Part shown: positions 1-28,169 of the stretch, piece after piece
How positions within the stretch are numbered: position 1 is the first letter of the stretch
Layout: every line of letters begins with the position of its first letter
Assembly: GCA_043800555.1 (NCBI GenBank)
Contig: JAZDMX010000008.1
Span: 5,340-69,339, forward strand
Source of the DNA: Candidatus Omnitrophota bacterium
GTDB lineage: Bacteria; Omnitrophota; Gorgyraeia; Gygaellales; Profunditerraquicolaceae
DNA length: 64,000 bases
Reading direction: 5' to 3'
Position numbers and translations under genes: made by a program
Notes under the pieces: model-generated
What the model was told of the DNA's origin: nothing
Databases searched by the model: none
What the model saw: only the letters and a program-made list of their open reading frames with translations

Positions 1-3000
1 TAGCCTCCCGGATAACACTCAGGCCGTCGTAGATGCTGGTGGTAGTAACTGAACCACTGGTTAAAGCCACCCTTTTCCCTTCTCCGTCATATTTATAGGT
101 TTGTTTAACGCTAGGAGATGTAAAGCTAGTCAACTGGTTCCGGGAATCAAAGGTGAACTTGGTGGTTTTGCCGGAGGCGAGCTGGGAGATGAGGTTACCG
201 TTAGCGTCATAAGTATAGGTGATTTGGCCCAAGATAGGATCGATTTCCTTGGTTAACTGATCTAAGGAATTATAGGCGTAAGTAGCCTTTTTTCCAGCCT
301 TAACCATGCTGGTGCGGTTACCTGCCGCATCATAGGCATAGCTTATCTGATAGCTTAGGCTGGTAGAAGACCTGTTTTCTTTGGTAAGCTCTCCTCTTTT
401 GCTATAACTATAGCTTATAGAGCCGCCCGGGAAGGTTGTTTTAGTGCGCCTGCCGGCCAGGTCATAGCTGTAGCTGAATTGATTAATAGTCGTGTAGGGG
501 GCCACAGACCGGGCATTGGAGAGTTTGGTTAGCCTATTCAAGGAATTATAAGTATAGCTGGCCTTAGTATTATTGGGATAGGTTAATGTAACGATGTTAC
601 CGCGCGAGTCATAGGCGTATTTAGTGATTTTACCTTGAGGGTCGGTAACGGCAAGGATGCGGTTATCGGCGTCATAGGCGTATTTGGTTACTTTTTTATC
701 CGGGTCAGTCATGCTTAAGCGGTTACCGGCTTTATCATAGGTATAGGTAATGGTGTCAACTGCCAGCGGGCCGTTAATTGATAAGAGCCTGCCGAGTTTA
801 TCGTAGGTATAGGATGTTTTGCCCCGGGAATCAGCCATGGCCAGGCGCCTGCCCATTGCATCGTAGGTATAAGTTACCGCGCCTTCTGGGTAAGCGGCTT
901 TAATCAGGCGGTTCAGGGAATCGTAAGTGTAGCTGGTAGCTTTGCCTAAAGCGTCGGTTTTAGCGGTAAGGTTACCGGCTGCGTCATAGGCGTATCGGGT
1001 TTTGTTGCCTAAAGCGTCGGTTTTAAGAACAAGGCGGTTCAAGGAATCATATCTAAAGGTAGTCGAATTATTGTTTTGGCCGGTTACGGTTATAAGGTTA
1101 CCTTCGGTGTCGTAGGCGTAAGTTATTGTCTTGCCCAGTTCGTCGGTAGATGAAATAACTTTTTGGTCCTGGTTGTAGGCATAACGGGTAATGTTTGAGT
1201 TCTGATCAGTGGCGCTTACGCAGTTTCCATCTGCGTCATACGCATATTTTACCTTAGAGCCATCAGGATAAGTAACCTGGATAAGCCGGTTAAGGGAGTC
1301 ATAGGCGAATTTGGTTATGTTTTTAGCGGGGTCCTGGGTTTGGATGAGGTTACCGATAGAATCATAGGTGAAATAAGTAATTGCCTTCAGGGGGTCGCGG
1401 GTAATCGTCAGATTCCCTTTGGTATCGTAGCCGAAATTTGTTACTTTACCGAGCTGGTTGGTTGAGGCAATCGGCAGGCCGTAGGCGTTATAAGCGTAAC
1501 TTAAGCTTGAGCCGTCCGGATAAACAACCTTGGTTAAGTTGCCTTTTGCGTCATAAGTATAGAGGGTGGACCTGCCAAGGAAATCAGTTGCTGACTTGAT
1601 CTGGTTAAAGGTTGTTTCGTAAGTAAAGAGCGTGGAATTCCCCAAACTATCGGTAACTTTGGTTAAGTTGCCGAATGAATCATATTCCATTTGGGTAACC
1701 CTGCCCAGTTCGTCGGTGCGGCTGGTCAGGTTAAAGTTAGAGTCCCAGGCGGAGAGTTTCGTTTTATTTAGAGGGTTAATGATTTTGGCAATTAAGAGGT
1801 CCTTGTTGTAGTAATAGACGTTTTGGTTGCCTTTGGAGTCAGAGACTACGGTTTTGGAGTTTGTTGGATCAAACTTAAGTTTCCGGTAGTAGAGATTATT
1901 ATCCAGGCTTGAGATGGTGCAGCGGCTGGAAGAATCATAAGTAAAATAGGCGGATTCTCCTTTGGGGCCGGTTTTCTTGGTCAGGTTGTGTTTTGAGTCG
2001 TATTTATAGGTAGTGGGGTTGCCGGGCGGGTCAGTAACGCTGATCAAGTTATTCGATGTATCGTAAGCATAATTAAAGTATCGTCCGCTAGGGTCAGTAA
2101 TGCGGGTAAGCAGGTTTTTAGAGTTATAGGCCAGGTTTATTAAGCGGCCTGCGGTATCAGTGATCTTAATAAGGTTTTTTTGAGCGTCGTAAGTGAATGT
2201 TATAGTGTTATTATTACGGTCTTTAACTTTAAGGAGCTTGCCGGTTAAGTCAAAAATATACTGCTTGCCGTCTTTTTTACGCCAGATAAAGTTGCTTGAG
2301 TTTTTGATTAGGGTGGAATAGTCGCCGTATTGGGATAGGTATGCGCCGTCTCCATTATAAACAAAAATATAGGCCCTCCCCTCTTCAGCAAGTATCTTTA
2401 CGGCGGAGTTAGGCGTATTCTGTGTCAGGTATATATTGTAATTGTGCGTCCAACCGCAGCCTAAAGGGCCGGCTGCTTTGGAGAGGCTGTTATAGCTGCG
2501 GGTAAATTCGAAGTTAAGGCTTCTTCCCGGCAGCTTGAAATCGGTGGTAATGATGTACATATTGCCGTTGACCAGGTTGACCGGATCTCCGGTTGTCTGA
2601 TCCGAGTCAGCCGGCTTGCCATAGTAGTATTCATCAAGGGGGTTTGATTTGGTTACCTGGGTAATTGTGAATTGGGCTTTAGCGGGAGTTAAATCGAGGT
2701 TACCGGCGTTATCTTTTGCAAAAACCATAAAGTTGTGTGGGCCTAATGAGAGATTCTTAAAAGTCATTGAGGTGGCAGTGGTATAATATGTGCTTGAGTC
2801 CATCACATAATAATATCCGGCAATGCCTTGCTCTCCTTCTATACCATGCCAGATAAAGGTAACGTTTTGTGTGCGGATGTCACCGGAAGGACCGGAATCG
2901 ATTATGGTATCAAGGGTTTGAGGCGGGCTGAATACCATAAGGCTTCCGCTAGTGTTACTAAAATTAGCGGTTTTAGTTATATAAGTGGTTTTAGCGCCAC

Positions 3001-3535
3001 TGTAAGATATTTCATCGTAAGTATATGTTCCGCTAAAATTAAAGCTGGCATTCTTAATTAAAACGCTGGCAGATGTTATATTGCCTGAACAGGAAATGTT
3101 AGTTTTTTCGGTGATAGTAGCGTTAGCGGTATTGCTTGTGCCTGTTTCGGTTTGAGTAAAGACAAGCGAATTCCCGGTAACCTTTCCATTTAGCGCCCCT
3201 AGGAGATTTACGTTCAGCAAACTACCTGTTTTTGATCCACTAATTGTTCCATTAGCGGACTGGGTTACGTTAAGCCCGGTTAAGACATAAAAGGAAGGCA
3301 GGCCTTTTTCATCGCGCTCAATGACGGTTTCATAAGGGGAAAAGGGCTGAACAGTCCTGATTTTTACATGTACAGGTATGTTTGAGTAGCTGTCGTTAAC
3401 ATACCAAATGCCTGATAAATCAGTATTGGCAGCTAAGGATAAACTGGGGGCGATAAGAGAGAAAATGAAAAGAAAAGTAATCAGCAACCAAGAGGCAAAA
3501 GAGAATTTTTTGAGATCGGGGAATGTTTTCCTCAA
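1..3535 (-). CDS. RHS/YD-repeat protein, N-terminal ~1178 aa only; the C-terminal toxin domain lies beyond the window edge. The ORF track does not list it because its stop is outside the window.
   Basis: Minus-strand translation is continuous from a TTG start at 3533-3535, which has an AAGGAGGG Shine-Dalgarno 5 nt upstream and an in-frame TAA further upstream. The predicted N-terminus MRKTFPDLKKFSFASWLLITFLFIFSLIAPSLSLAANTD is a signal peptide. A GDPVNLVNGNMY...RSYNS core-start motif follows, then dozens of YD repeats such as KYAYDADNRILAVTDPQGKITKYAYDSRGN, visible in the recurring tacgcctatgac pattern. Confidence 0.85.
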   Translation of the reverse strand, partial: MRKTFPDLKKFSFASWLLITFLFIFSLIAPSLSLAANTDLSGIWYVNDSYSNIPVHVKIRTVQPFSPYETVIERDEKGLPSFYVLTGLNVTQSANGTISGSKTGSLLNVNLLGALNGKVTGNSLVFTQTETGTSNTANATITEKTNISCSGNITSASVLIKNASFNFSGTYTYDEISYSGAKTTYITKTANFSNTSGSLMVFSPPQTLDTIIDSGPSGDIRTQNVTFIWHGIEGEQGIAGYYYVMDSSTYYTTATSMTFKNLSLGPHNFMVFAKDNAGNLDLTPAKAQFTITQVTKSNPLDEYYYGKPADSDQTTGDPVNLVNGNMYIITTDFKLPGRSLNFEFTRSYNSLSKAAGPLGCGWTHNYNIYLTQNTPNSAVKILAEEGRAYIFVYNGDGAYLSQYGDYSTLIKNSSNFIWRKKDGKQYIFDLTGKLLKVKDRNNNTITFTYDAQKNLIKITDTAGRLINLAYNSKNLLTRITDPSGRYFNYAYDTSNNLISVTDPPGNPTTYKYDSKHNLTKKTGPKGESAYFTYDSSSRCTISSLDNNLYYRKLKFDPTNSKTVVSDSKGNQNVYYYNKDLLIAKIINPLNKTKLSAWDSNFNLTSRTDELGRVTQMEYDSFGNLTKVTDSLGNSTLFTYETTFNQIKSATDFLGRSTLYTYDAKGNLTKVVYPDGSSLSYAYNAYGLPIASTNQLGKVTNFGYDTKGNLTITRDPLKAITYFTYDSIGNLIQTQDPAKNITKFAYDSLNRLIQVTYPDGSKVKYAYDADGNCVSATDQNSNITRYAYNQDQKVISSTDELGKTITYAYDTEGNLITVTGQNNNSTTFRYDSLNRLVLKTDALGNKTRYAYDAAGNLTAKTDALGKATSYTYDSLNRLIKAAYPEGAVTYTYDAMGRRLAMADSRGKTSYTYDKLGRLLSINGPLAVDTITYTYDKAGNRLSMTDPDKKVTKYAYDADNRILAVTDPQGKITKYAYDSRGNIVTLTYPNNTKASYTYNSLNRLTKLSNARSVAPYTTINQFSYSYDLAGRRTKTTFPGGSISYSYSKRGELTKENRSSTSLSYQISYAYDAAGNRTSMVKAGKKATYAYNSLDQLTKEIDPILGQITYTYDANGNLISQLASGKTTKFTFDSRNQLTSFTSPSVKQTYKYDGEGKRVALTSGSVTTTSIYDGLSVIREA

Positions 3536-3712: not shown

Positions 3713-6700
3713 TTATACCACCAGCGACAGGCGTTCTTCTCCCAGGAGGTCTTCGATTTCTTTAATTAATTTCTCTGAAGGCGATACGTAAAATCCTTCG
3801 CCAACTACCAACTGGACCCGGGATTTTGCCGGGGTGTCCAAATTCAGGTAAACCGGGATGTTCCCCCGCGAAGCGGCAAGCAGCCCTTTTAAGGTCTCAA
3901 AGACATTTTCCCTTAGCCCCGAGAGGTTAATGCTCATCGCGGTAATGAGCTTGTAAATTTCATCAAACGGGAAAAGGTCGTTAACCAGTATTTTAGGCGT
4001 GTCCTCTTTCAGGCTCAAGGTGCCTCTTACCAAAACTACGCTATTGGGCTGGATATAGCGGGAAACTTTCTGGAAGGAGCGCGGGAAAACCAGCAGTTCT
4101 ACCGAGCCATTTAAATCCTCCAGTTTTAATATCGCCATCTTCTCCTGTTTTGCGCGCGTGATAGTGTGTTTAACTTTGCAGATTAATCCGACGATTTTTA
4201 CTTCGTCTTCGTCCTTATGCTGGCGCAAATCACTGATTGAAGATGAAACAAAGCGTTTTAATTGCCGGGCGTAACGCGCCAAAGGATGGCCGCTTACATA
4301 AAACCCGAGCATTTCCTTTTCAAACGCCAATAGCTGCGGCTCCGGCCACTCGTGGATTTGGGGCGTTTCGTTTATAATCTCTTTAAAGCCGTTAGCGGAT
4401 AAGCCCTGGTCAAAGAAAGAAAGCTGCCCTTTGGCTTTCTCTTTTTGATTGCGGGAAGCCGCTTCCAGGATCAAGCTTAAGGAGGCAAACATCTTTGCCC
4501 GCGATATTTTAAAAGAATCCAGCGCCCCGCACTTTATCAGGCTTTCTAAAACCTTGCGGTTGGCTAAGCGTAAATCCACCCTCTGGCATAAATCTTCCAG
4601 GCTGGCGAATTTCCCGGATTTCCTGGCTTCGACAATCGATTCAACAGCCCCTACCCCGACATTTTTGATTGCCAGCAATCCGAAGCGGATGGTTTTTTCG
4701 TCTTCGACCTTGAACAAAGCGCCGCTTTCGTTTATCTCCGGGGGCGAAACCGTTATGCCCATGCGCCCGGCTTCCGCCACGTATTCAACGATTTTGTCCG
4801 TATTATCGCGCTCGGAAGTAAGCAGCGCGCTCATAAATTCCACCGGGTAATTGGCTTTCAGATAAGCGGTGCGGTAAGAAATAAGCGCGTAGGCGGTGCT
4901 ATGGCTCTTGTTGAAGCCGTACCCGGAAAAATATTCGATCAGGTCAAAAATCTTGGTGGCGGTGGATTCTTTGATGCTGTTTTTAAGGCAGCCGTGGATA
5001 AAATTGCTCCTTTGCTTCTCCATAACCTCGGGAATTTTTTTGCCCATAGCTTTACGCAAGATGTCCGCCTGGGCGAGGCTAAAGCCGCCTAAAAGGGAGG
5101 CAATTTGCATGATCTGTTCCTGATAAACCATAATGCCGTAGGTTTCCTTAAGCACCGGCTCGAGCTTGGGGTGTTCGTATCTAATGGGGATAAGGTTATG
5201 CTTGCGTTTCATAAAATCGTTAAGCATCCCCGAACCAATCGGCCCCGGCCGGTATAAAGCCAGCAAAGCGATCAAGTCCTCGAAACGTTCGGGCTCCAGT
5301 TTCTTAAGCAAATCGCGCATCCCGGAGCTTTCAACCTGAAAGACCCCCATAGTTTGCGCCGAGGCCAGGAGCTTGTAGGTGTTTTTGTCGTCGAGAGGAA
5401 GTTTCCGGACCTCGATATCTTTGCCCCGGGTTTCCTTGATTATTTTTACTGCCTGGTCTATGACGGTAAGCGTCCTTAAGCCCAGAAAGTCGACTTTCAA
5501 AAGGCCGATCTTTTCCAGTATCCCCATGCTAAAGCCGGTAGTTATCTGGCCGTCGCTGGTTTTAAAAAGCGGGCTGTAGTTGCTCAAGGGCTTATCGGCA
5601 ATCACAACCCCCGCCGCGTGCACCGAAGCGTGGCGGTTTAACCCCTCCAGGGCCAATCCCGTAGTAATCAGCTTAGTTACCTCGGGGTCGTTCTTGTAGA
5701 GGTTATTTAACTCCGGTTCGCTCTCAAGGGCTTTCTTGAGCGTCATATCGATTTCCGGCGGGATCATTTTGGCGATCCGGTCGACATCAGCGTAACTCAT
5801 TGCCATGACCCTGCCCACATCGCGCACAACCGCGCGCGCCTGCATCGTCCCGAAAGTAATGATCTGGGCAACGTTTTCCTGGCCGTATTTTGCGGTAACG
5901 TAATCAATGACCTCTTGCCTTCTTTCGTAACAAAAGTCTATATCGATATCCGGCAGGCCCATTCTTTCCGGGTTTAAGAACCTTTCGAAAAGCAGGCCGT
6001 ATTTTAAAGGGTCCAGGTCGGTAATCCCCAAAAGATAGCTCACCAGGCTGCCTGCGGCCGAGCCCCTTCCCGGGCCGACCGGGATTCCTTTGCTTTTGGC
6101 GTAATGGATGAAGTCCCAGACGATGAGAAAGTAACTGACAAACCCCATATCCTTGATGATCTTAAGCTCATGTTCCAGCCTGGCCGTAACCTCATCGCTT
6201 ACCTTGGCGTATTTTTCCTTGATCCCGGCATCGCAGAGTTCTTTTAAGTATTCTTCCTTTGTTTTGCCGACCGGGGGCTCATATTTAGGCAGGTGAACTT
6301 TCTTGAAATCCAGCTCCAGGTTGCAGCGGGAAGCTATTTCGCAGGTATTGGAAATGGCCTCGGGGGTTTCCTTAAAAAGCGTTTTCATCTCCTGCGGGGA
6401 TTTAAAATAAAATTCATCGGTTTGAAAACGCATCCGGTTGGGGTCTTCCAGCGTAGCCTGGGTTTGGATGCACAAAAGCGCTTCGTGGGAAACCGCTTTA
6501 TCGCGCGTCAGGTAATGCACGTCGTTTGTGGCGGCTAAAGGCAGGTTTAATTCTTTGGCTATCCGGATTAATCCGGCATTGACGCCTTTTTGCTCGGGGA
6601 TTGAATTCTCCTGGATTTCCAGGTAAAAATTATCCTTGCCGAAAATATTCCGGTAGGTGTCTGCCAATTTTAGCGCGTCATTAAAGCGTTTTTGCTGGAT

Positions 6701-7147
6701 TAATGAGGGGATCTCTCCCTTCAGGCAGGCGCTTAGGCCGATTAACCCCTGGGAATACTGGCTAAGTATTTCTTTATCGATCCTTGGCCGGTAATAGAAG
6801 CCTTCCAGGTAAGCGGCTGAAACCAGTTTCATTAAATTATGGTAGCCGGTTTCATCGCGGGCCAGGAGTATTAAATGGTAGGCGGCTTCGTCTATGCCGC
6901 GGGGCTCCTTGTTGAAACGGCTGTTGGGGGCGACATAAGTTTCGCACCCGATGATGGGCTTAATGCCGTTTTTTAAGGCTTCCAGGTAAAAGTCAACCGC
7001 CCCGAACATATTGCCATGGTCGGTAATGGCCAGGGAATCCATATTGTATTGTCTGGCGAGGCTTAATAATTCGGGAATGCGGCAGGCGCCGTCAAGAAGG
7101 CTGAATTGCGTGTGCAGGTGCAAATGGACGAAATCGCTATGCGGCAT
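3713..7147 (-). CDS. dnaE: DNA polymerase III alpha subunit
   Basis: 1144 aa. N-terminal PHP domain HSDFVHLHLHTQFSLLDGA, and the polIIIa core and OB-fold architecture of DnaE family proteins throughout. Confidence 0.95.
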   Translation of the reverse strand: MPHSDFVHLHLHTQFSLLDGACRIPELLSLARQYNMDSLAITDHGNMFGAVDFYLEALKNGIKPIIGCETYVAPNSRFNKEPRGIDEAAYHLILLARDETGYHNLMKLVSAAYLEGFYYRPRIDKEILSQYSQGLIGLSACLKGEIPSLIQQKRFNDALKLADTYRNIFGKDNFYLEIQENSIPEQKGVNAGLIRIAKELNLPLAATNDVHYLTRDKAVSHEALLCIQTQATLEDPNRMRFQTDEFYFKSPQEMKTLFKETPEAISNTCEIASRCNLELDFKKVHLPKYEPPVGKTKEEYLKELCDAGIKEKYAKVSDEVTARLEHELKIIKDMGFVSYFLIVWDFIHYAKSKGIPVGPGRGSAAGSLVSYLLGITDLDPLKYGLLFERFLNPERMGLPDIDIDFCYERRQEVIDYVTAKYGQENVAQIITFGTMQARAVVRDVGRVMAMSYADVDRIAKMIPPEIDMTLKKALESEPELNNLYKNDPEVTKLITTGLALEGLNRHASVHAAGVVIADKPLSNYSPLFKTSDGQITTGFSMGILEKIGLLKVDFLGLRTLTVIDQAVKIIKETRGKDIEVRKLPLDDKNTYKLLASAQTMGVFQVESSGMRDLLKKLEPERFEDLIALLALYRPGPIGSGMLNDFMKRKHNLIPIRYEHPKLEPVLKETYGIMVYQEQIMQIASLLGGFSLAQADILRKAMGKKIPEVMEKQRSNFIHGCLKNSIKESTATKIFDLIEYFSGYGFNKSHSTAYALISYRTAYLKANYPVEFMSALLTSERDNTDKIVEYVAEAGRMGITVSPPEINESGALFKVEDEKTIRFGLLAIKNVGVGAVESIVEARKSGKFASLEDLCQRVDLRLANRKVLESLIKCGALDSFKISRAKMFASLSLILEAASRNQKEKAKGQLSFFDQGLSANGFKEIINETPQIHEWPEPQLLAFEKEMLGFYVSGHPLARYARQLKRFVSSSISDLRQHKDEDEVKIVGLICKVKHTITRAKQEKMAILKLEDLNGSVELLVFPRSFQKVSRYIQPNSVVLVRGTLSLKEDTPKILVNDLFPFDEIYKLITAMSINLSGLRENVFETLKGLLAASRGNIPVYLNLDTPAKSRVQLVVGEGFYVSPSEKLIKEIEDLLGEERLSLVV

Positions 7148-8740: not shown

Positions 8741-9901
8741 TTATTTGCCCATGCCGACTCTTTGGCCAACCTGGAACATCTTTCCTTCTGTTTGTATGGA
8801 AGGGGCGATAATGATTTCTACGTCGTGCATTTCTTTTAAGTTTGAGGCGCCTAATGAGCCCATGGAAGTTTTAAGCGCTCCCATTAAATTTTGCGAACCG
8901 TCGTCAACCCTTGCCGGGCCGAAGAGGATTTCCTTTAATGAACCGGTTGTGCCGACCTGGATGCGGGTGCCGCGGGGCAGGTTCACATGCGAAGTGGCCA
9001 TTCCCCAGTGATAACCGCCTCCCGGGGCTTCGTTTGCCCGGGCGAAACTGGAGCCTATCATTACGGCGTCCGCGCCGCAGGCAAAGGCCTTGCAGATATC
9101 CCCGCCGCGGTTCATTCCACCGTCGGTAATTATGGGGATGTATTTGCCCGTCCTTTTATAATAAAAATCGCGCGCGCCTGCCGCATCCACCGTTGCGGTT
9201 ACCTGGGGCACGCCTATGCCTAAGACTCCCCGGGTTGTACAGGCTGCTCCCGGGCCGACGCCGATAAGCAGGCCGGAGGCGCCGGTTTCCATAAGCTCTA
9301 CGGTAGTCTCGTAAGTTACGCAATTACCGAGTATGACCGGGATTTTGGCGGATTTGCAGAATTTATGGAGGTCCAGGGTTTTATATTCCTTGGCGATATG
9401 CTTGGTGGTTGTAACCGTTGACTGCACTACGAATATGTCCGCTCCGGAAGCAACCGCAAGCTTGGAAAATTTTTCGGCGTTTGCCGGGATGCAACTGACT
9501 ACGGCAATGGCCTTTTTCTTCTTTATTTCCGAAACTCTCTTGGAGATTAATTTTTCATTTATAGGCCTGGTGTATAAGGATTGGATTAACTGGGTAGCTT
9601 TTTGGGGGCTGGACTGCGCGATTTCCGCCAATACCGTCTCGGGGTTTTCGTAACGCGTCTGGACGCCGTCAAGGTTTAATACCGCTATGCCGCCCAGGCC
9701 CGACATTTCAATGGCAAACTTAACATCAACAACGCCATCCATTGCCGCGGCCAGGATCGGGACTTTGAATTTTTTACCGCCTATTTGAAGGGAAATATCA
9801 ACTTCATTGGGATTAACTGTCTGCGCCCCGGGCACAAGCGCTATCTCATCAAAGCCATAGCATCTGCGGGCCCGCCTGCCTATGCCTATCCACTCTGCCA
9901 T
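8741..9901 (-). CDS. IMP dehydrogenase / GMP reductase family protein lacking the CBS pair
   Basis: 386 aa. IMPDH TIM-barrel motifs are present (GVGPGAACTTRGVLGIGVPQ with the active-site Cys) but there is no CBS-domain insertion. It lies immediately upstream of guaA in the same orientation. Confidence 0.75.
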   Translation of the reverse strand: MAEWIGIGRRARRCYGFDEIALVPGAQTVNPNEVDISLQIGGKKFKVPILAAAMDGVVDVKFAIEMSGLGGIAVLNLDGVQTRYENPETVLAEIAQSSPQKATQLIQSLYTRPINEKLISKRVSEIKKKKAIAVVSCIPANAEKFSKLAVASGADIFVVQSTVTTTKHIAKEYKTLDLHKFCKSAKIPVILGNCVTYETTVELMETGASGLLIGVGPGAACTTRGVLGIGVPQVTATVDAAGARDFYYKRTGKYIPIITDGGMNRGGDICKAFACGADAVMIGSSFARANEAPGGGYHWGMATSHVNLPRGTRIQVGTTGSLKEILFGPARVDDGSQNLMGALKTSMGSLGASNLKEMHDVEIIIAPSIQTEGKMFQVGQRVGMGK

Positions 9902-10137: not shown

Positions 10138-10725
10138 CTATTCTTTCTCCAGATGGCTGTCCACATAAACCGCCAGCAGCTCGGCTACCTTGGGCGGAGG
10201 GGTAACATTAAAATAATGGTCTATAATCGCATGGCCCATTTCATGGGCAATTACCGAGTCTGTAATGTCCTGCATTGAGGAAAAGATCATCTCGAGGTTA
10301 TGGATGTAAAAAGACCGGTAATTTTGCCGGGAACCGAAAATACGGTAATATTCGTTATTCAGCTCTTCGCGGTTATTGAAAACCTTGATTTTCAGGTTCA
10401 TATACGGCGGGTTCATCGCCAGTATCCTTTTTGCCCTTAGGAGTATTGATTCCAGCCGGGCAGTGATCCGGTTTTCTATCCTATATGCCGGGTTAGCAAA
10501 CAGGTCTTTTTCCACCGTTGAAACCGAAAAGTAACGGCTGCGCAGCCGGCTCTCCAGCTTGCGGAGATTGGTATCGGCGGGGTATAACAAAGTCACCTCT
10601 CTGCCTTTAGCGGCCAGCCAATCCGGCGTTTCGCTGAACGCATAGCTCTGCCCGGCTAAAGCCTTCCCGGCTTGCCCTGTTAACATGACCCCGCAGAAAA
10701 TCAAGATTATTATACGCGTCTTCAT
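10138..10725 (-). CDS. Secreted hypothetical protein with an HExxH zinc-metallopeptidase motif
   Basis: 195 aa. N-terminal signal peptide MKTRIIILIFCGVMLTGQAGKALA, and a C-terminal VIAHEMGHAIIDHYF motif. Confidence 0.5.
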   Translation of the reverse strand: MKTRIIILIFCGVMLTGQAGKALAGQSYAFSETPDWLAAKGREVTLLYPADTNLRKLESRLRSRYFSVSTVEKDLFANPAYRIENRITARLESILLRAKRILAMNPPYMNLKIKVFNNREELNNEYYRIFGSRQNYRSFYIHNLEMIFSSMQDITDSVIAHEMGHAIIDHYFNVTPPPKVAELLAVYVDSHLEKE

Positions 10726-10756
10726 CTATATTAATAGACGGCTGGCCTCCGGTAAT

Positions 10757-11317
10757 CTAACAGTTAAATTTCTTCAACTGGCTTTTGATCATCTCTATTT
10801 TCTCCCGTTCTTTGGAATCCAGGGCAAAAACAGGTATGCTTTCGATTTCCCTGCGTATCTGGCCTATGTTATCGTGTATGGCCTTGGCCATTTGATTCAA
10901 AGAGTCCACAAGGTCCTGCAATTCGTCTTTTTGGCGTATATGGAAGCTTACCCCGAAGTTCCCGTTGGCAATTTCAGCGATATCCTTTTTTATCCGGACC
11001 AGCGGCCCGGCAATGCGGTGGGAAGTAAGCAAAGTGATTATGATTGTCGCGATGGCCGAGGCGATAACCGCTATCAGGCTGCTTAGCAATAAGAGCGGCA
11101 GCAGGAAATCCGCGGTGCTTTGGATTTGCAGGCGCGAATTCTGAAATACCGTGGTTGTGGCTGAGGCGCTTGACCAATAGACAATCGCCGAAAGCGCCAG
11201 CGACGAAAGGATGGTCACCGCGCAAAATTTGAGGATAAACCCCCGCTGGAACTGCATCCTGACGATGCGCAGCCTCCTGCGCTTTTGGAAATCATTCTTC
11301 ATTCGCCCCTCCTTCAT
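10757..11317 (-). CDS. HAMP domain-containing membrane protein
   Basis: 186 aa. Two transmembrane segments followed by a HAMP-like linker (IAGPLVRIKKDIAEIANGNFGV) and a short coiled coil. No recognisable output domain. Confidence 0.5.
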   Translation of the reverse strand: MKEGRMKNDFQKRRRLRIVRMQFQRGFILKFCAVTILSSLALSAIVYWSSASATTTVFQNSRLQIQSTADFLLPLLLLSSLIAVIASAIATIIITLLTSHRIAGPLVRIKKDIAEIANGNFGVSFHIRQKDELQDLVDSLNQMAKAIHDNIGQIRREIESIPVFALDSKEREKIEMIKSQLKKFNC

Positions 11318-11813
11318 TGACCCGCGCGGTATTTAAATTTATGCTGTTTAAGGTATCGTCATACTTATGTATTTTTGCCTCCTGCTTTAAGCCTTTAATC
11401 CAGAGGTCCAGCAGCGCCTGGGCGTTCTCTTTCTTTTGCGCGTCATTCTCCCCTTTTGCCGCGGCCAGGAATTCCGCGCCTTTTATGTTGATCAGCCTTT
11501 TGATAAGCGCCTGTTTCCAGTAATTCTCGACCTCTTTCATAAAATCCCTGTTTTTATCCAGGCCCATCCGCTCTGCCTGCTGTAAAATAAGCTCATTAGT
11601 GACAATGTCGTTATAAAGCTGTTCCTTGATTGCCCCGGAATTGTCATTCTGGAGCATATAGGGCAGGTTCAACTTTGCCTCCTGCATAAAATCATCCACG
11701 GTCAGCTGGTAGTTATTTATTTGCGCGACTACCTGCTTTTTGCCGGCCGGCGCCTTAGCGCATCCGGCGAAGAGCGCGGCAATTAGCAGAAGCAATATGA
11801 TTAGTCTGTTCAT
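11292..11813 (-). CDS. Lipoprotein with a SurA-N-like chaperone domain
   Basis: 173 aa. The lipobox LFAGC follows a signal peptide. The rest is predicted helical and resembles the SurA N-terminal domain. Confidence 0.4.
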   Translation of the reverse strand: MNRLIILLLLIAALFAGCAKAPAGKKQVVAQINNYQLTVDDFMQEAKLNLPYMLQNDNSGAIKEQLYNDIVTNELILQQAERMGLDKNRDFMKEVENYWKQALIKRLINIKGAEFLAAAKGENDAQKKENAQALLDLWIKGLKQEAKIHKYDDTLNSINLNTARVNEGGANEE

Positions 11814-11860
11814 TTTTATCTCCTTTTTAACTTTTATATTCTATCATAGCTTTCATTTCT

Positions 11861-11891
11861 TCCACAACACCTTTATCATCCATAAACCCTG
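11861..11891. repeat. 31-bp direct repeat, left copy, flanking toxin-antitoxin cassette 1 (tccacaacacctttatcatccataaaccctg)
   Basis: It matches 13631-13661 at 27 of 31 positions, with a 23-bp core tccacaacNcctttatcatccat. On the minus strand it encodes MDDKGVVE, the start of a tiny ORF. Confidence 0.75.
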
Positions 11892-12770
11892 TTATTTAAC
11901 ACCTTCCATTGCCATATTAATTCGTTCGAGTGCCTTATCCAAATCGAAATTTTCGCGCTCAGCTGGAGATAGGACGTCGAATAACTCGGTTTTGATGCGA
12001 AAGCGCATATCTTCAATCTCAGTATTTTTACGCCCCATATTGACGGAATATTTCGTTAAATCCAAATCCCCGCCATCTTCCCCTATTTTCTTCTTAAAAA
12101 GTTTAACTACCTCTTTATCCGCAATATTGAATTTGTTGCGGAGAAGAAAATCAAGATCGTAAAAATCGCGCGGGGCAATAGGTTCTCTTAGGGCCGCGGC
12201 GCGAAGTTTCTCGCTTACGATTTCATTAAGAGACAGGCAGGCGGCCTTGCCTCCGTCAAAAAGAGGCTCTCCCGTAAATGGATGCGTATACGTATGATGA
12301 ATCTGCTTTTTTTCTACCGGATCAATAGGGTTAAATCTTAAGCCGACTTCAAACTTAATTTGTCCTTTGTTCGGGCGCAGGGCTGATTGATAAGAAAAAT
12401 AATACACATATTGTTTTGACTCGTCCCTCCCGGGATTTCCAGCGTCAACAATCTTCATATCGAACTGTTCCACAAATTTTGAGATCTTATCCTTTACGGG
12501 TTGGATACATTTTCTCCGCTCTCCTCGGGTCGCCTCATACCGCGGAAGCTTCATGCTAAAATCAAGGTCTTCGCTCAAACGATAATATGCGTAATAAATC
12601 TTATTCAGGCAGGTCCCGCCCTTAAAAACGAGGTCTTCGGTAAGTTCGTGTACCCGGGAAAGGACCAAAGTCAAATAGTAATCTTTCTCCAACAAAGGCG
12701 GCAGAAATCCTTTTTTCTTTGCCGCCCTTTCCAATGTTTTTACAAATTCATCTTTATTTTTGTGAATCAT
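11892..12770 (-). CDS. AbiEii/AbiGii-family nucleotidyltransferase toxin (DUF1814), toxin-antitoxin pair 1
   Basis: The motif FKGGTCLNKIY...RLSEDLDFS is the nucleotidyltransferase signature of AbiEii toxins. I chose the ATG at 12768-12770 (MIHKNKDEF..., GGAGAG Shine-Dalgarno) rather than the ORF-track start at 12857, which would overlap the antitoxin by 104 nt. Confidence 0.8.
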   Translation of the reverse strand: MIHKNKDEFVKTLERAAKKKGFLPPLLEKDYYLTLVLSRVHELTEDLVFKGGTCLNKIYYAYYRLSEDLDFSMKLPRYEATRGERRKCIQPVKDKISKFVEQFDMKIVDAGNPGRDESKQYVYYFSYQSALRPNKGQIKFEVGLRFNPIDPVEKKQIHHTYTHPFTGEPLFDGGKAACLSLNEIVSEKLRAAALREPIAPRDFYDLDFLLRNKFNIADKEVVKLFKKKIGEDGGDLDLTKYSVNMGRKNTEIEDMRFRIKTELFDVLSPAERENFDLDKALERINMAMEGVK

Positions 12771-13554
12771 TGATGATAACTCTCCACTTCTTATTGAGCG
12801 TGCCTTTACGTGATCCGGTAAACGTAGTAACCGCGGTTTTTTTAACGCTATCAACAAGAGGTTTTAGCATGGCTTCCGTAAGGTTCGATTCATCAAGAAT
12901 CAGCCCAATACGTTTCCTCGTTTTTATATTAGGGAATAGCGCGGCATATTCCACCAGCTTTTTAATATCGCATTTCTTTTCTATGACAAATTGCTTTAAT
13001 ACTTCTCCGGCAGTTTTGATTCCGCCAACGGGCTTATTAAAATAAATCAAGTCGATCAATGTCCGTTCTTTGGAACTAATAATGACATCGGCGTCCTTAA
13101 CCTTAATTGTTTCCAGGCCATAAAAACGGCTTTCCGGAATCCTTATGAATTTGTAGGAAATACCACAGATAACCTTTTCTATCCGGATAGTAGTATTAAG
13201 AATGTAAACCGTCTGAAAGAGTTGCTCGGTAAAGCCGTAATAATTGAACAGGGTCGAATAGCCAACGTAATAATTCTTTTTAGGGAAAAAGAGCGGCGGG
13301 ATAAGCAATTCATCGATGCCGGTTCCTTCCGGGCCAGCCTCAAGCGGCGAGAACGCATAGGTGCCGCGTTTAATAGCAGTAAGTATTTTCTTCTTCTTGA
13401 GCCGGAAAACAATCTGTTTTCTATCTGCGGGGGAAAGCTTAAACAGGCGATCGAGATATTCGACTGTGACAATCGTCTTCTTTTCGTATGTTAAACGGGC
13501 GACGATATTGGTCTCAATCGGCCCTAAAGTTTTAGATGTATTATTCGGTATCAT
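12754..13554 (-). CDS. AbiEi-family antitoxin / transcriptional regulator, toxin-antitoxin pair 1
   Basis: 266 aa. The N-terminal winged-helix carries the AbiEi motif LKKKKILTAIKRGTYAF. It lies directly upstream of the AbiEii gene in antitoxin-then-toxin order. Confidence 0.75.
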   Translation of the reverse strand: MIPNNTSKTLGPIETNIVARLTYEKKTIVTVEYLDRLFKLSPADRKQIVFRLKKKKILTAIKRGTYAFSPLEAGPEGTGIDELLIPPLFFPKKNYYVGYSTLFNYYGFTEQLFQTVYILNTTIRIEKVICGISYKFIRIPESRFYGLETIKVKDADVIISSKERTLIDLIYFNKPVGGIKTAGEVLKQFVIEKKCDIKKLVEYAALFPNIKTRKRIGLILDESNLTEAMLKPLVDSVKKTAVTTFTGSRKGTLNKKWRVIINDSQK

Positions 13555-13630
13555 AGGTTATCTCCGGCATAACTTTCGTACCCTTTTTATACATATCAAG
13601 TTTACCACAACTTTTCCCCCTCTCAATCCC

Positions 13631-13661
13631 TCCACAACCCCTTTATCATCCATCAGCTCTG
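13631..13661. repeat. 31-bp direct repeat, right copy, flanking toxin-antitoxin cassette 1 (tccacaacccctttatcatccatcagctctg)
   Basis: See 11861-11891. The minus strand here continues an ORF fragment DKGDNWVVNTFEKISPGSLRKQIKHLERLTELMDDKGVVE... Confidence 0.75.
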
Positions 13662-13779
13662 TGAGGCGCTCTAGGTGTTTTATCTGTTTGCGCAAGCTTC
13701 CCGGGCTAATCTTTTCAAAGGTATTTACTACCCAATTATCCCCTTTATCTCATCTACAATTGTATTTTACCATAATTTT

Positions 13780-15153
13780 TTACCTTGAAAACTCCCGAAA
13801 AATAATGACACTAATTGTTTTAAGGATGATCTGGACATCTAAAAAGAAAGACATATTCTTTAGGTAAAACATATCATATTGGAATTTTTCAAGGGCCGAT
13901 TCCTTTGACGCGCTATAAGAATAACGCACCTGCGCCCATCCGGTAAGCCCCGGCTTAACGGTATGTCTTAACGAATAATAAGGGATGCTTTCCGCATAAT
14001 CCCTGGATAAGCTAACCGCTTCCGGCCTTGGCCCGACAAGGCTCATATCTCCTATAAAAATATTCCAAAGCTGCGGTAGTTCATCAAAGCGCACCTTACG
14101 GATAAACCTTCCAACCCGAGTAATTCTGGCGTCATTCGTTGAGGTATAGATTCCTCCGTCCTTCTTCTCGGCGCCAACTACCATGGAACGGAACTTATAC
14201 ATCAAGAACTCCTTGCCATTTTCGCCAATACGAGGCTGCTTGTAAATCACCGGGCCTCGCGATTCAATCTTTATGGCTAAGGCAACAATAAGCATAATAG
14301 GCAAAGAGATAACCAGTCCAATCATTGACAAAATAATGTCAAACCATCTTTTGCACTGTAAATATATATGGCTCGACATCGCTGAAAATGAAGAAAAAAT
14401 AAGCCATCCTTTGCGGATATGTGAAACAGGGATTTTTCCCGTTAACTCTTCGGAAAGATAAGCAACGTCTGTAACCTGAATATGCCTCATCTTAACGGCC
14501 AATAAGGTATCCCAAAGCGCAGGGGACTTTTCGTGCGTAATCGCCACAACTACAAGATCAACCAGCGCATCCTTGCTTAACGACAACAAAACATCTGTTC
14601 CACCCAATACCTTAACCCCATGGATCAGATCGCCTCGTTTACCGGCATCGTCATCAATAAATCCCACCATTTCATAATCGCGCTTACCTTTGAGGACATC
14701 ATAAATGTGCTTCCCGGAGTGACCTGCGCCGACAATAACCATCCTTTTCTTGGAAAAACCCGTCACAAGATAATCTTCAAAAATAAACCTCCAGAAAAGA
14801 ACAAATAATGAAGTATAAAATGCGCTTAAAAGTGCGATGCCGCGGCCGACCTTAAGAAGAGGAATTGAATAAGAAAGTACGGCGGTGAAAAGAAAGCTGA
14901 AGAATACTGCTACGATGAAACGGGAAACAAAATATGAGCTTCTGAACCGCTGGTGTCCTTCGTAAAGTTTAAAAATATAAAAATTCACCAAATAGGTCGC
15001 TACTAGTATTGCTACAGGGAGCTGATAAGAGATAAATGCGCGATGAAAGCTGCCATAACGAGTAAAGCTAGAAAGCGCGAAAGCCAGGAAGATAGCAGAG
15101 ATATCCCCGAGTACTAAAATTGGTAATTTTATACGGTTCCCGACTTTATGCAT
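13780..15153 (-). CDS. Polyprenyl-phosphate glycosylphosphotransferase, the initiating sugar transferase (WbaP/CpsE-like)
   Basis: 457 aa. N-terminal transmembrane segments and a CoA-binding-like domain, then a C-terminal Bac_transf domain with KRWFDIILS...YKFRSM...[22 protein letters not shown]. Confidence 0.9.
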
Positions 15154-24920: not shown

Positions 24921-25889
24921 TTACACTATTCGTTCTAATTCGCTTTTCAGTATCGCCTCAAGATCGTATTCTGGCTGCCAGCCGAGAATTGTTTTTGCTT
25001 TTTCGGATGAAGCAACAACAGTTTCAACATCGCCCGGTCTGCGGGGCCCAACAGCATAAGGAACTTCACAATTAGCTGTTTTTGCCGCGGTTTCAATTAC
25101 TTCCAGCACGGAAAATCCAGCTCCATTCCCAAGATTGAATACTTCATTTTCTACGCCTCTTTCAAACGCTGATAGGGCTAAAAGATGCGCTTGGCATAAA
25201 TCCAGGACATGGATGAAATCACGGATGCCTGTGCCATCGGATGTTTTGTAATCTGTCCCGTAAACAGTAAGCTTGCCTTTCCCGCGCAAGGCGCGCATAG
25301 TATTGGAAATCAAATGCGTCGGTTCCGGCCTTCCCTTTACCGGCCACTTGTAACGGGTGTCCCATCCGGCAACGTTGAAATAGCGCAGCGCGATAAACTC
25401 GATACCGCCAGCCTGCGCTGCGTCGGCAAGTATTTTTTCTGACATCAGTTTTGAAGCGCCATACGGGCTTAGGGGGATAGTTGGTTCGTTTTCGGTTACC
25501 GGCATATGTTTTGGCGAGCCATATACCGCTGCCGTTGAGGAAAACACGATCTTACGCGCGTCATGGTCGCGCATAGCCTGCAAAAGGTTCAACGTGCCGC
25601 CGACGTTATTGCGGTAATACATAACCGGCTCTTTCATCGATTCAGGAACCACGATTTTTGCCGCAAAATGCATAGCCGCGTCAATATGGAATTTGTCAAA
25701 TACGCGCTGAATTGCCGGGAGAGAACAGAGGTCGCCTTTTACAAAGCGGGCCTTCTTTGCGATCCAGGGTTTGATGCCGGTTGAAAGGTTGTCAAATATC
25801 ACAACTTTATGCCCGGTTTCAAGGAGCATACGCGCCATATGCGCTCCGATGTATCCTGCTCCTCCGGTAACAAGGATTGTTTTTTTCAT
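24921..25889 (-). CDS. galE: NAD-dependent UDP-sugar 4-epimerase (GalE-like)
   Basis: TILVTGGAGYIGAHMARMLLETGHKVVIFDNLSTG with the YxxxK short-chain dehydrogenase fold. Confidence 0.85.
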   Translation of the reverse strand: MKKTILVTGGAGYIGAHMARMLLETGHKVVIFDNLSTGIKPWIAKKARFVKGDLCSLPAIQRVFDKFHIDAAMHFAAKIVVPESMKEPVMYYRNNVGGTLNLLQAMRDHDARKIVFSSTAAVYGSPKHMPVTENEPTIPLSPYGASKLMSEKILADAAQAGGIEFIALRYFNVAGWDTRYKWPVKGRPEPTHLISNTMRALRGKGKLTVYGTDYKTSDGTGIRDFIHVLDLCQAHLLALSAFERGVENEVFNLGNGAGFSVLEVIETAAKTANCEVPYAVGPRRPGDVETVVASSEKAKTILGWQPEYDLEAILKSELERIV

Positions 25890-25903
25890 AGGTTTACTTT
25901 AGA

Positions 25904-25968
25904 TAAGGCGTATATTTATCAACGGTTTTCCGGTAATTCCTGCTATAAGGCTTAAGCTCAAGCGCCTG
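25904..25968. repeat. Cassette-boundary direct repeat, copy 1 (65 bp; the most diverged)
   Basis: taaggcgtatatttatcaacggttttccggtaattcctgctataaggcttaagctcaagcgcctg. Homologous to 28087-28169 and 29682-29764. Confidence 0.85.
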
Positions 25969-26313
25969 AGCAAGTCGGGTAAAGATGCCCTCTATCTAAC
26001 AATTCAAATTTATCTGCAAGCATAGAAATAATCAGACTTAATCAATCCGCATAGCCAATGGCTGAGGATACCAATTTAATCGTCCATCCGTCGTTTTGGC
26101 GGTCATGAAGCGGACGAGTCGTTGTTTAACAAAAGGTAAAAAAGGAATCGGTCTGTACTGAACAACCACAGCTATGTCAGCAAAACTAACGGGACTAATA
26201 TTAAACTGCCTCAAAGGGAATCTGACAGTATATTTATCAGTGTTTTAGCTTCACTGCCATTATGCCTTTTGGCCTGTTATAAAACTACAGGCCATGGTTT
26301 TTCCCCTTCTGCG

Positions 26314-27345
26314 TCAAACTGCGCAGTTTATTCCATTAATTTGTTCTTCGATGACCCGCAGTTTTTCTATAATACGCTCAAATGACGGTGGCTCTTCAAA
26401 AAACATTTGCTGCATCTGGCGGTAATCATTTTTCAGTTGGTTCATTTGATCATCGCGGGGCACTAACCGTAAACTACCCGCGCTTGCTTTATCGTAGCGC
26501 GCCCGGTTATCTTTAAAAAACAAGGATTTATGCTCAGAAACATGTTTCAATAACGATATGTTTTCCAGAGCCCGTTTATATATAGGCGATCCTGCCATCG
26601 CGTATACATCATAATAATGCCGTGACATTCGCAATGGCACATTTTTTTCAGGCGGATAATGATATATCATATGCAAAATTGTCGCTTTCTCCCAAAAAGT
26701 CCGTTCCGCGGCTAAAACACGCACAGAAGCCCCTGTAATTGACTTTTCACCGAGAATACCTGCAATATATGGAATAGCTACGGCGGTTTCAACCGGCCAA
26801 TGGTCAGACCGGGCGCCAAATTCAATTTTGACTGAAGGCCTTACATAGTTTTCGCTAACGCCCGACATAGCCTGAGGAAAAGTAAACAAAACCGTTTGCC
26901 TATCCGCATCATCCTGAGCCAGCTCAGTCCCCCACTCTCCGTTATCAGAAAGGACTGCCGCGATCGCCTGCTTTAAATCAGGAAGAATAATTTTATCAAT
27001 TTTCATCTTGCAAGCCACTTGCAATTCTTTAAGCCTTTTTTGGTTTTCCTTATTGCTCTTTCCTCTATCCGGTTCGGTAACCGCCGTATTTGACAAAAAC
27101 AGCCGCTCTATCGAGATATCAATATCCTCCGAAAAACGCTTAATAACATTAAAACATTTCGAGAGAGATGTCCCTCCTTTAAAAGTCAAATGCGCGCTAA
27201 TCTCCGGCAATGAAAAAAGGATTTTTAGTATCCAGCATACCCAAAAATCTTTTTCAACCAATTGCGGCATTATGCCTAAATTAGCCGCGGCTGCTTCAAA
27301 GTACGCGCGTTTATCTTTATTCGATAGTAATGCAAATTTATTCAT
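26314..27345 (-). CDS. AbiEii/AbiGii-family nucleotidyltransferase toxin (DUF1814), toxin-antitoxin pair 2
   Basis: 343 aa. The motif FKGGTSLSKCFNVIKRFSEDIDIS is the AbiEii signature. Confidence 0.85.
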   Translation of the reverse strand: MNKFALLSNKDKRAYFEAAAANLGIMPQLVEKDFWVCWILKILFSLPEISAHLTFKGGTSLSKCFNVIKRFSEDIDISIERLFLSNTAVTEPDRGKSNKENQKRLKELQVACKMKIDKIILPDLKQAIAAVLSDNGEWGTELAQDDADRQTVLFTFPQAMSGVSENYVRPSVKIEFGARSDHWPVETAVAIPYIAGILGEKSITGASVRVLAAERTFWEKATILHMIYHYPPEKNVPLRMSRHYYDVYAMAGSPIYKRALENISLLKHVSEHKSLFFKDNRARYDKASAGSLRLVPRDDQMNQLKNDYRQMQQMFFEEPPSFERIIEKLRVIEEQINGINCAV

Positions 27346-27351
27346 AATTTT

Positions 27352-27951
27352 TTAGTCCTGCAGTTGCCTAAATACCGGCCCTATCCACGCAGGGGCATAG
27401 CGAAGATCGCGCATAAGACGGCGCTTATCGTTTCCGGTCAATCTTTTTTTAAGTATTCCTATTATTTTATCATCCGCATGGCCTTTTCCTAAATACCGCA
27501 AAGCCTGAATAACTAAACCGCTGATATTCCCGGCAGCCGCCATATTCTTGGGTGTTGTCCTTTTTAAAATAATCTGCTGTTTTTCAACCTGAACTATCCT
27601 GTTGGCGCCATCGGTTAAGAAAACAATTTTCGCCGGCACCTGCTCGGTTAAGCCCAGAAGATTGGCGGCGTATGCCCCGGAAGGCTGAATTTTCAAGTTA
27701 TCCCTTCCCGCTAATGCTTGAGCGATGCGTTCATAATTCGCGGGCAACTCTCCCAATACGGGATGCTTCTTCGGGTAATCATACAAACCGCGCGCGAGCC
27801 GCCGGATAGCGCCGGAGATTGCTAAACGCTCTAAAGCCTTAGCTACTGCCGCGCGGCTTCCAAGGTCAAAAAAGTGAGCTGGAGTAAATACCCAACCCCT
27901 CTTTTTACCATGAATTCTGCTAGCTACTCTATTATCGACATATTTTATCAT
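27352..27951 (-). CDS. DUF6088/AbiEi-like antitoxin, toxin-antitoxin pair 2
   Basis: The motif GWVFTPAHFFDLGSRAAVAKALERLAISGAIRRLARGLYDYP is the AbiEi-like winged-helix. I chose the ATG at 27949-27951 (MIKYVDN...). The ORF track extends to a TTG at 27999, which lies inside the operator palindrome. Confidence 0.7.
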   Translation of the reverse strand: MIKYVDNRVASRIHGKKRGWVFTPAHFFDLGSRAAVAKALERLAISGAIRRLARGLYDYPKKHPVLGELPANYERIAQALAGRDNLKIQPSGAYAANLLGLTEQVPAKIVFLTDGANRIVQVEKQQIILKRTTPKNMAAAGNISGLVIQALRYLGKGHADDKIIGILKKRLTGNDKRRLMRDLRYAPAWIGPVFRQLQD

Positions 27952-27968
27952 AATATCAACCTTTTTCC

Positions 27969-27998
27969 TGTCGCAAAAAGTATATACTTTTTGCGACA
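27969..27998. promoter_or_regulatory. Perfect 30-bp palindrome TGTCGCAAAAAGTATATACTTTTTGCGACA overlapping the -10 element of the pair-2 promoter; putative autoregulatory operator
   Basis: A TTGACA -35 element at 28002-28007 sits just upstream (minus strand), and the palindrome contains the TATATA/TATACT -10 candidates. Confidence 0.6.
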
Positions 27999-28086
27999 AA
28001 ATGTCAAGTATTCTTTCTTCTTGGCCGTTTCGCTGCTGCGGAGGCGGCTGGTGTTAGGAAAACCAGGGGACAGGCCCAGGGTTTTC

Positions 28087-28169
28087 CTATTTTAAGTAAG
28101 GCGCGTATTTATCAACGATTTTCCGGTAATTCTGGCTATAAGGCTTAAGCTCAAGCGCCTGGGTTAGCT
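28087..28169. repeat. Cassette-boundary direct repeat, copy 2 (83 bp)
   Basis: ctattttaagtaaggcgcgtatttatcaacgattttccggtaattctggctataaggcttaagctcaagcgcctgggttagct. The stop codon of toxin 3 (28164-28166) lies inside the repeat. Confidence 0.9.

Follow-up and report, generated by a model that had tools for sequence, protein, structure and literature searches.

An AbiE toxin-antitoxin cassette between short direct repeats appears to interrupt a CapD-like gene remnant in an Omnitrophota genome

The window analysed here is a 64-kb stretch of DNA (64,000 nucleotides; positions 5,340 to 69,339 of the forward strand of contig JAZDMX010000008.1, assembly GCA_043800555.1) from the metagenome-assembled genome (MAG) of a Candidatus Omnitrophota bacterium, and it contains three AbiE-type toxin-antitoxin pairs. 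The first of these (pair 1), consisting of an AbiEi antitoxin gene and an AbiEii nucleotidyltransferase toxin gene, is enclosed by two short, imperfect copies of host sequence. Pair 1 is very probably a horizontally acquired cassette that was inserted, without a recombinase of its own, into the remnant of a CapD-like gene. The whole account favoured here, in which this insertion was made by Campbell-type host recombination, is assigned a probability of about 0.55. The cassette lies in the decaying 3' tail of the CapD-like gene, where a polysaccharide locus borders on a SurA_N-like lipoprotein operon, and ~23-31 nt of the tail are left on both sides.

The duplicated target and the interrupted gene

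A repeat finder applied to positions 10500-15000 returned a sole outstanding family, a direct repeat of two 43-nt copies at 11850-11892 and 13620-13662, with 81% identity and a spacing of 1770 nt. Within it lies a 23-nt core, TCCACAAC[A/C]CCTTTATCATCCAT, at 11861-11883 and 13631-13653, in which 22 of the 23 positions match. With up to three mismatches permitted, the core occurs exactly twice in the window, and two such matches were obtained in none of 100 dinucleotide-preserving shuffles. Extended to 31 nt, the left (downstream) copy at 11861-11891 and the right (upstream) copy at 13631-13661, both on the minus strand, are identical at 27/31 positions, which bears out the imperfect 31-bp direct repeats around the antitoxin-toxin pair that a first-pass annotation of this DNA had described. 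The mismatches are unevenly placed: one of the four lies in the core, and the other three are packed into the 8 nt nearest the AbiEii stop codon. At the distal end of the 43-nt right copy, ~11 nt (GGGATTGAGAG) form the -35 region of the abiE promoter and so are a part of the inserted module; that they resemble the native AGAAATGAAAG is a matter of microhomology at the junction. This leaves a duplicated target of ~23-31 nt, not 43: ~31 nt at 27/31 identity, or just the 23-nt core if the mismatches clustered near the AbiEii stop codon are non-homologous. No tRNA or other RNA gene was detected near the repeats by Rfam and tRNA scans.

On the minus strand, MDDKGVVE is encoded by the left and right copies alike. 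The right copy belongs to the upstream part of the interrupted gene (13631-13749, minus strand; DKGDNWVVNTFEKISPGSLRKQIKHLERLTELMDDKGVVE, without an ATG or GTG start), whose frame reads ...ISPGSLRKQIKHLERLTELMDDKGVVE-GLRGG... and, after DKGDNWVVNTFEKISPGSLRKQIKHLERLTELMDDKGVVE, runs on as GLRGGKVVVNLICIKRVRKLCRR to a stop codon. The left copy goes on as ...MDDKGVVEEMKAMIEYKS to a stop codon (EEMKAMIEYKS). This stop, a TAA at 11829-11827, lies 14 nt before the ATG (11813) of the SurA_N-like lipoprotein gene (11292-11813, minus strand), with AAAGGAG in between, so that the first-pass description of a frame resuming after the left copy, by the lipoprotein ribosome-binding site, was found again in the sequence. 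Alignment with relatives identifies the codons at 11827-11860 (minus strand; EMKAMIEYKS and stop) as the displaced end of the interrupted gene. Both outer flanks are native: that of the right copy, CTCACAGAGCTG, is CapD tail and matches the related contigs L098 and L096, and that of the left copy, GAAGAAATGAAAGCT, is native tail followed by the lipoprotein ribosome-binding site and matches the same two contigs.

The conserved lipoprotein gene served as a synteny anchor, and contigs carrying its relatives at 50-71% identity were compared. In L099 and L100 (56% relative), a long Polysacc_synt_2 (CapD-like) gene stands directly upstream of the lipoprotein gene; it is intact in L099 (PF02719, E=8e-96). 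Its tail in these contigs reads ...LKHLADMMDNVGVVRKMKEIIG before the stop codon, and the gene ends ...HEKIYISQPQELDQAALRKRLKELKHLADMMDNVGVVRKMKEIIG and stop. When the reconstructed window peptide was compared with the L099 protein by BLASTP, 35 residues, 40% of them identical and 74% similar (E=9e-8), aligned with its very C-terminal end. As a protein query, the reconstructed 50-aa open reading frame (ORF) returned no homologue, in agreement with a gene remnant rather than a gene. The small ORF, which the first-pass annotation had treated as a gene in its own right, is instead the C-terminal remnant of a CapD-like gene, of which ~50 codons are left in this genome.

The tail is uninterrupted in the relatives. 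In L098 (70% relative), the last ~26 codons remain, (N)KQIKSLERLTELMDDQAVEDEMKLIIQ and stop, and they start where an unrelated gene, which matches Bro-N weakly, has its stop codon. The tail of L096 (71% relative), ...KRLERLAELMDDQAVTEEMKLIIGEGTREIAYKKP and stop, is separated from the lipoprotein gene after it by a gene for an AAA_14/DUF4143 ATPase. The MDD... segment was found by alignment once in each of L096, L098 and L099, reading straight into ...EMK.... A single uninterrupted tail in three related contigs indicates that the AbiE pair is an insertion, and the single-copy site that had been predicted at first pass for relatives lacking the pair was therefore found. The insertion split the decaying 3' end of the CapD-like gene, and the predicted empty site reads ...CTCACAGAGCTGATGGATGATAAAGGGGTTGTGGAAGAAATGAAAGC.... 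The KGVVE codons are common to both window copies, whereas L096 and L098 read QAVTE and QAVED at that place, so the duplication arose in the lineage of the window or in a very close one.

Upstream of the remnant, the body of the CapD-like gene has been replaced by a locus at ~13.8-35.4 kb that includes genes for glycosyltransferases, Wzy, a flippase, Wzz/kinase and export, the final gene of which encodes a Bac_transf sugar transferase (13780-15153, minus strand). The content of the site differs between genomes: the AbiE pair here, the AAA_14/DUF4143 ATPase gene in L096 (169-1332) and the Bro-N-like gene in L098 (31-666). With differing accessory genes at one site, the boundary that separates the polysaccharide locus from the lipoprotein operon has the look of a hotspot for insertions. 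The tail was suspected to recur in L096, past the AAA_14 gene ("TKEIRVVIF" and stop), but the repeat search gave no support for a second copy and the idea was dropped. Exact-sequence look-up of the lipoprotein and the sugar transferase returned nothing on record, and peptide-pattern scans of genome and metagenome collections found no relatives of the lipoprotein.

The AbiE cassette and repeats around its relatives

AbiE systems, composed of an AbiEi antitoxin and an AbiEii nucleotidyltransferase, have been characterised in Lactococcus and Streptococcus agalactiae. The insert in the window is 1736 bp long (11892-13627, minus strand), bounded at one end by the -35 box of a promoter of its own and at the other by the stop codon of AbiEii. 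The promoter (13599-13626, minus strand) consists of TTGAGA, a 16-nt spacer and TG-n-TAAACT; its first hexamer is TTGAGA in the window versus TTGACA in other genomes. The antitoxin gene (12754-13554, minus strand; 266 aa) matches PF09407 (AbiEi_1; E=4.8e-8, 33.8 bits versus a cut-off of 22.2), the match being confined to the C-terminal domain. The toxin gene (11892-12770, minus strand; 292 aa, with its ATG at 12770) matches PF08843 (E=1.2e-28, 101 bits versus a cut-off of 22.5) and overlaps abiEi by 17 nt. Both genes are full-length, and the cassette codes for these two proteins alone. It thus shares with AbiE type IV toxin-antitoxin and abortive infection systems both Pfam families above cut-off, with an AbiEii/DUF1814-type toxin gene preceded by an AbiEi-type antitoxin gene in one bicistronic operon with overlapping genes and a promoter directly upstream; it differs from the characterised systems in coming from the MAG of an uncultured Omnitrophota bacterium. 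Accordingly annotated, window 13627-11892 appears to be a self-contained AbiE operon, and its genes are, by their family matches, ordinary AbiE members.

Gapless 1736-nt blastn alignments at 82-90% identity were obtained with more than 20 loci that have unrelated flanks. All span window 13627-11892; these common end points merely mark where the window's own insert stops, and extra upstream sequence, including a conserved hairpin, is common to the other cassette loci. Among the best 120 hits of AbiEii, nearly all are 292 aa long and identity is 71-91%; dozens of homologues, nearly all from Omnitrophota, are 86-91% identical, and the 266-aa AbiEi partner lies upstream of AbiEii at every related locus. 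The best relative of the neighbouring host lipoprotein reaches 71% identity only, with this MAG's own NCBI record set aside. The GC content is 38-43% in the cassette versus 48-51% on the lipoprotein side. These comparisons suggest that the cassette circulates horizontally among Omnitrophota. A search of viral contigs did not find it. In the interval that separates abiEii from the lipoprotein gene (11827-11892), no intrinsic terminator was detected, so there may be read-through from the abiE promoter into the host operon that follows.

Two further observations concern the surroundings of the cassette elsewhere. In several contexts (L101-L116), the long cassette form is preceded by a perfect hairpin with a 10-bp stem, GTCGCAAAAAGCATATAGTTTTTGCGAC then AACAGAAATGCGTCTT, located ~50-100 nt upstream of the -35 box (e.g., L106:~2190-2220) within a stretch of 550-900 nt that precedes abiEi and is apparently non-coding; the hairpin is missing from the cassette of the window. 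In addition, radC is a frequent downstream neighbour of the cassette (L101-103, L107 and L112), and in L107 a 76-nt fragment of the radC N-terminal region, at 2497-2571 and 5060-5135, is ~75% identical to the radC downstream of the cassette. This radC repeat is real, lies ~570 nt upstream of the cassette, and was left as ambiguous.

The flanks of other cassette copies were screened for direct repeats against shuffled controls, and repeats were found in five contexts. In L133, one copy of a 21-nt repeat (19/21 identical; 1305-1325 and 3081-3101) is 16 nt upstream of the -35 box, and the other is 3 nt past the stop codon. In L135-L140, representing six assemblies or samples, a perfect 24-nt repeat (L135:2139-2162 and 4020-4043) has its first copy at the promoter and its second 140 nt past the stop codon; L135 may have a further, outer repeat of 15 nt, which was too weak to count. 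The 40-nt repeat of L125 (83% identical; 1081-1120 and 2896-2935) is the 3' end, with the stop codon, of the upstream 117-aa gene. That of L131 (123 nt, 98% identical; 1992-2114 and 4029-4151) lies ~27 nt before the cassette begins and ~150 nt past the AbiEii stop codon. That of L126 (246 nt, 90-97% identical; 1724-2127 and 3902-4147) is the start (5' end) of the downstream DUF2779 gene, and one of its copies is broken by an insertion of ~170 nt with two internal hairpins (L126:1881-2050), which may be a miniature repeat element. The repeats of the five contexts are locally derived and mutually unrelated in sequence.

The two other AbiE-type pairs of the window are likewise bracketed. Pair 2 (DUF6088 protein and AbiEii, 26314-27999) and pair 3 (a 212-aa protein and AbiEii, 28164-29605) are separated and enclosed by three copies of a ~91-nt repeat (25895-25983, 28088-28176 and 29683-29771; 82-94% identical), which corresponds to the 3' end of a 114-aa ORF at 29682-30026. 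All three copies end at a stop codon and their starts lie within ~3 nt of one another. The last copy abuts the ATG of an epimerase gene (24921-25889), in the same way that the lipoprotein gene adjoins the left copy at pair 1. As a background, a near-flank repeat score of at least 16 was reached at one of 410 positions of a 1736-nt pseudo-insert in the window, and this one was the pair-2 repeat itself.

Where the repeats are coding, the copies differ mostly at synonymous sites. Window copies 1 and 3 of the ~91-nt repeat have a proportion of synonymous differences (pS) of 0.35 and of nonsynonymous differences (pN) of 0.086, and in L126 the values are 0.23 versus 0.07. The pooled pN/pS is ~0.25, and neutral decay of both copies was rejected (p ~3e-4, binomial estimate).

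Routes of insertion

The route ranked first, above in-place duplication of the target, is Campbell-type insertion-duplication; taken by itself, this specific route is tentative, at somewhat less than an even chance. The incoming DNA of a relative would consist of the cassette and a short flanking stretch of host sequence. It would circularise, and the circle would cross over once with the homologous chromosomal stretch, giving two non-identical copies, i.e., two alleles, around the insert. From the known behaviour of such modules, the addictive toxin-antitoxin pair would help rare integrants persist. By family resemblance, AbiEi would bind and repress the operon and neutralise AbiEii, and AbiEii, a Pol-beta-type nucleotidyltransferase, would halt growth once released, e.g., upon phage infection. 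In principle, the two copies could also recombine with each other and release the cassette as a circle, whose predicted junction is ...GGTGTTAAATAACAGGGTTTATGGATGATAAAGG[G/T]GTTGTGGAGGGATTGAGAG....

Campbell-type insertion-duplication and homology-facilitated illegitimate recombination are known from transformation. There, the duplication is as long as the homology that was brought in, its copies may be different alleles, a dedicated enzyme is not required, and one junction can be illegitimate with microhomology. All repeats found here are host-derived sequence. The synonymous bias between copies is expected if they are two alleles of a functional gene, not one copy decaying in place, and the similar boundaries of the ~91-nt repeat in two successive insertions also count for insertion-duplication. 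The present case differs from the known one in its extremely short homology (23-31 nt). A literature search by title found nothing on toxin-antitoxin cassettes between duplicated target sequences.

Several results weigh against this route. The near-identical stretch at pair 1 is only 23 nt, made of perfect blocks of 14 and 8 nt, which is at or below the usual need of RecA-type recombination. The mismatch cluster by the AbiEii stop codon and the patchy microhomology at both junctions (A[T/A]TGA[G/A]AG on the promoter side) fit an illegitimate join equally well. The perfect or near-perfect repeats of 21-24 nt that flank the cassettes of L133 and L135 resemble products of duplication in place. 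For the synonymous bias, a model of one functional and one decaying copy was borderline (p ~0.05, binomial estimate). Around about two thirds of the other contexts (about a dozen), a search that extended 400-930 nt on the downstream side and at most 1.5 kb on the upstream side found no flanking repeat. Finally, no circular form, donor locus or within-population empty/filled polymorphism was observed.

The next reading in order, which we consider unlikely, is an illegitimate, microhomology-guided insertion in which the target was duplicated in place, either by template switching during replication or by fill-in after a staggered break had captured a DNA fragment; the copies would have been identical at first and diverged later. 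It would account for repeat lengths of 21-246 nt and for cassette end points that vary: the 5' boundary lies 0-3, 16 and 16 nt upstream of the -35 box in the window, L133 and L126, respectively, and 12 nt downstream of it in L135, and the 3' boundary lies 0, 3, 19 and 140 nt past the stop codon in the window, L133, L126 and L135, respectively. The patchy microhomology at the junctions, the perfect repeat of L135 and nearly perfect one of L133, the near-identical stretch of just 23 nt at pair 1, and the KGVVE codons, which place the duplication in this lineage, are all in its favour. However, random breaks would not reproduce the boundaries of the ~91-nt repeat, which recur in two successive insertions; the coding copies differ with a synonymous bias; and the mismatches in the 31-nt repeat are uneven (3 in 8 nt by the AbiEii stop codon, 1 in the 23-nt core).

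The first-pass annotation had regarded the locus as a ~1.77-kb module with duplication of a 24-31-bp target or attachment core, and had preferred integration by a recombinase. The duplication, at ~23-31 nt around an insert of 1736 bp, was upheld; the attachment core and the recombinase were not. Among those complete window ORFs of at least 100 aa that were searched against Pfam, no recombinase, integrase or transposase family was found. In this survey, the ORFs at 3713-7147 (DNA polymerase III alpha) and 8741-9901 (IMPDH-like) were named by synteny with L097 only, and an ORF of >1139 aa running off the window start was left out of the scan. The 23-nt core is absent from all 140 other fetched loci, and a search of a metagenome collection with back-translated MDDKGVVE gave 95 stretches, all in unrelated proteins without flank similarity. 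The repeat is therefore not a common sequence, which would have told against the first-pass reading, and not a shared attachment site either. Other copies of the cassette have different repeats, of 21-246 nt, or none.

Site-specific integration by a recombinase acting in trans, which would make the cassette a recombinase-less remnant flanked by attL and attR at a gene 3' end, is accordingly improbable. Such remnants are known as cis-mobilizable elements (CIMEs). The order gene end, cassette, displaced gene end fits integrative elements that target 3' ends; three equal ~91-nt repeats in tandem resemble accretion at one att site; and attL and attR, too, are often imperfect copies. Att-flanked elements at a gene 3' end reportedly include the ICESt1/ICESt3 family at fda in Streptococcus thermophilus. 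In common with CIMEs and decayed att-flanked elements, the insert here lacks a recombinase and lies between ~30-nt direct repeats of a gene end, and pairs 2 and 3 form a tandem array split by one repeat. In contrast to them, neither a cognate integrase nor a shared att core was found, the repeats differ per locus, and the insert is a toxin-antitoxin operon only. Tests for a CIME-like element accordingly gave no identifiable recombinase in the scanned ORFs and no core shared between cassette sites. The repeats of eight loci are unrelated, at 21-246 nt, so that each would need its own recombinase; the core was found nowhere else in the 140 loci and the metagenome collection; and the cassette lies 0-20 nt from both repeats at many independent loci, which the decay of larger elements would not repeat. 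Attachment-site and dif-like readings were rejected for want of a cognate recombinase and a shared core. Overall, the architecture most resembles CIME-like islets and behaves like laboratory insertion-duplication.

Transposons and integrons were also considered and rejected. Like the target-site duplications of transposons, the target here is directly duplicated on both sides of the insert; unlike them, the duplication is far beyond the usual 2-14 bp and varies in length (21-246 nt rather than a fixed length). No transposase was detected among the scanned window ORFs, and no terminal inverted repeats pair the cassette ends. Toxin-antitoxin pairs are often carried as gene cassettes in chromosomal integrons, and the pairs here share with integron cassettes the form of small promoter-plus-gene units that are arrayed with repeats between them. 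The repeats are, in contrast, pieces of host genes; direct reading found no RYYYAAC or GTTRRRY core sites in them, and IntI was not found in the scanned window ORFs. Repeats that are local and differing, at 21-246 nt, together with end points varying by tens of bases, are incompatible with a transposase that acts on defined ends, with one common att site and with attC sites of integrons.

It is highly improbable that the AbiE proteins themselves drive integration, with AbiEi as a DNA-binding partner and AbiEii filling in a staggered target, as a minimal self-mobilising element: target duplications at the three AbiE-type pairs of the window and in five other pair-1-family contexts, over a low background, would agree with it, whereas no nuclease or recombinase domain was detected, terminal inverted repeats are absent, repeat length is not fixed, most contexts are without repeats, and AbiE loci were the only ones examined. 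That the pair was not inserted at all, and the repeat reflects chance similarity or an assembly artefact, is scarcely credible; the sequence is from a MAG and a 23-31-nt repeat is near common k-mer sizes, but none of 100 shuffles gave a chance match, k-mer joining does not produce imperfect copies, relatives have the single-copy site, and the analogous structure of L135 was assembled independently in six samples. The probability that remains is shared by self-mobilisation, artefact and mechanisms outside those considered.

Implications and further observations

The locus of pair 1 is in itself the product of an ordinary event, the horizontal gain of a known defence or toxin-antitoxin operon on the variable margin of a polysaccharide locus. 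Of more interest for further work is the recurring, repeat-flanked AbiE architecture: duplicated host sequence flanks three of three AbiE-type pairs in the window and the pair-1 family in five other contexts, with no recombinase detected. A broader proposal, which is rather doubtful at present, is that AbiE operons of Omnitrophota, and perhaps more widely, are recombinase-free mobile cassettes, which would carry a piece of a host gene, recombine in, be held by the toxin and be able to exit via the copies. If this were true, cassette arrays split by gene-end repeats would form without an integron, transposase or integrase. Should the pattern hold in a systematic survey, small defence cassettes would spread and stack by host recombination and their own addictiveness alone, and such spread would help explain defence genes at sites without recognisable hallmarks of mobile elements.

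Some features elsewhere in the window and the contigs were also recorded. That no ORFs seem to be listed in window 1-3420 is accounted for by one open frame of >1139 codons on the minus strand, which continues beyond the window start. The first 26 bases of L097 (L097:1-26) are Illumina adapter (TTCCCTACACGACGCTCTTCCGATCT) and hence not genomic. The valyl-tRNA synthetase gene is split into ORFs of 672 aa and 202 aa, and a LeuA-like gene into ORFs of 414 aa and 110 aa (window 41822-44511 and 44508-46075); these splits could be frameshifts, assembly errors or pseudogenes.

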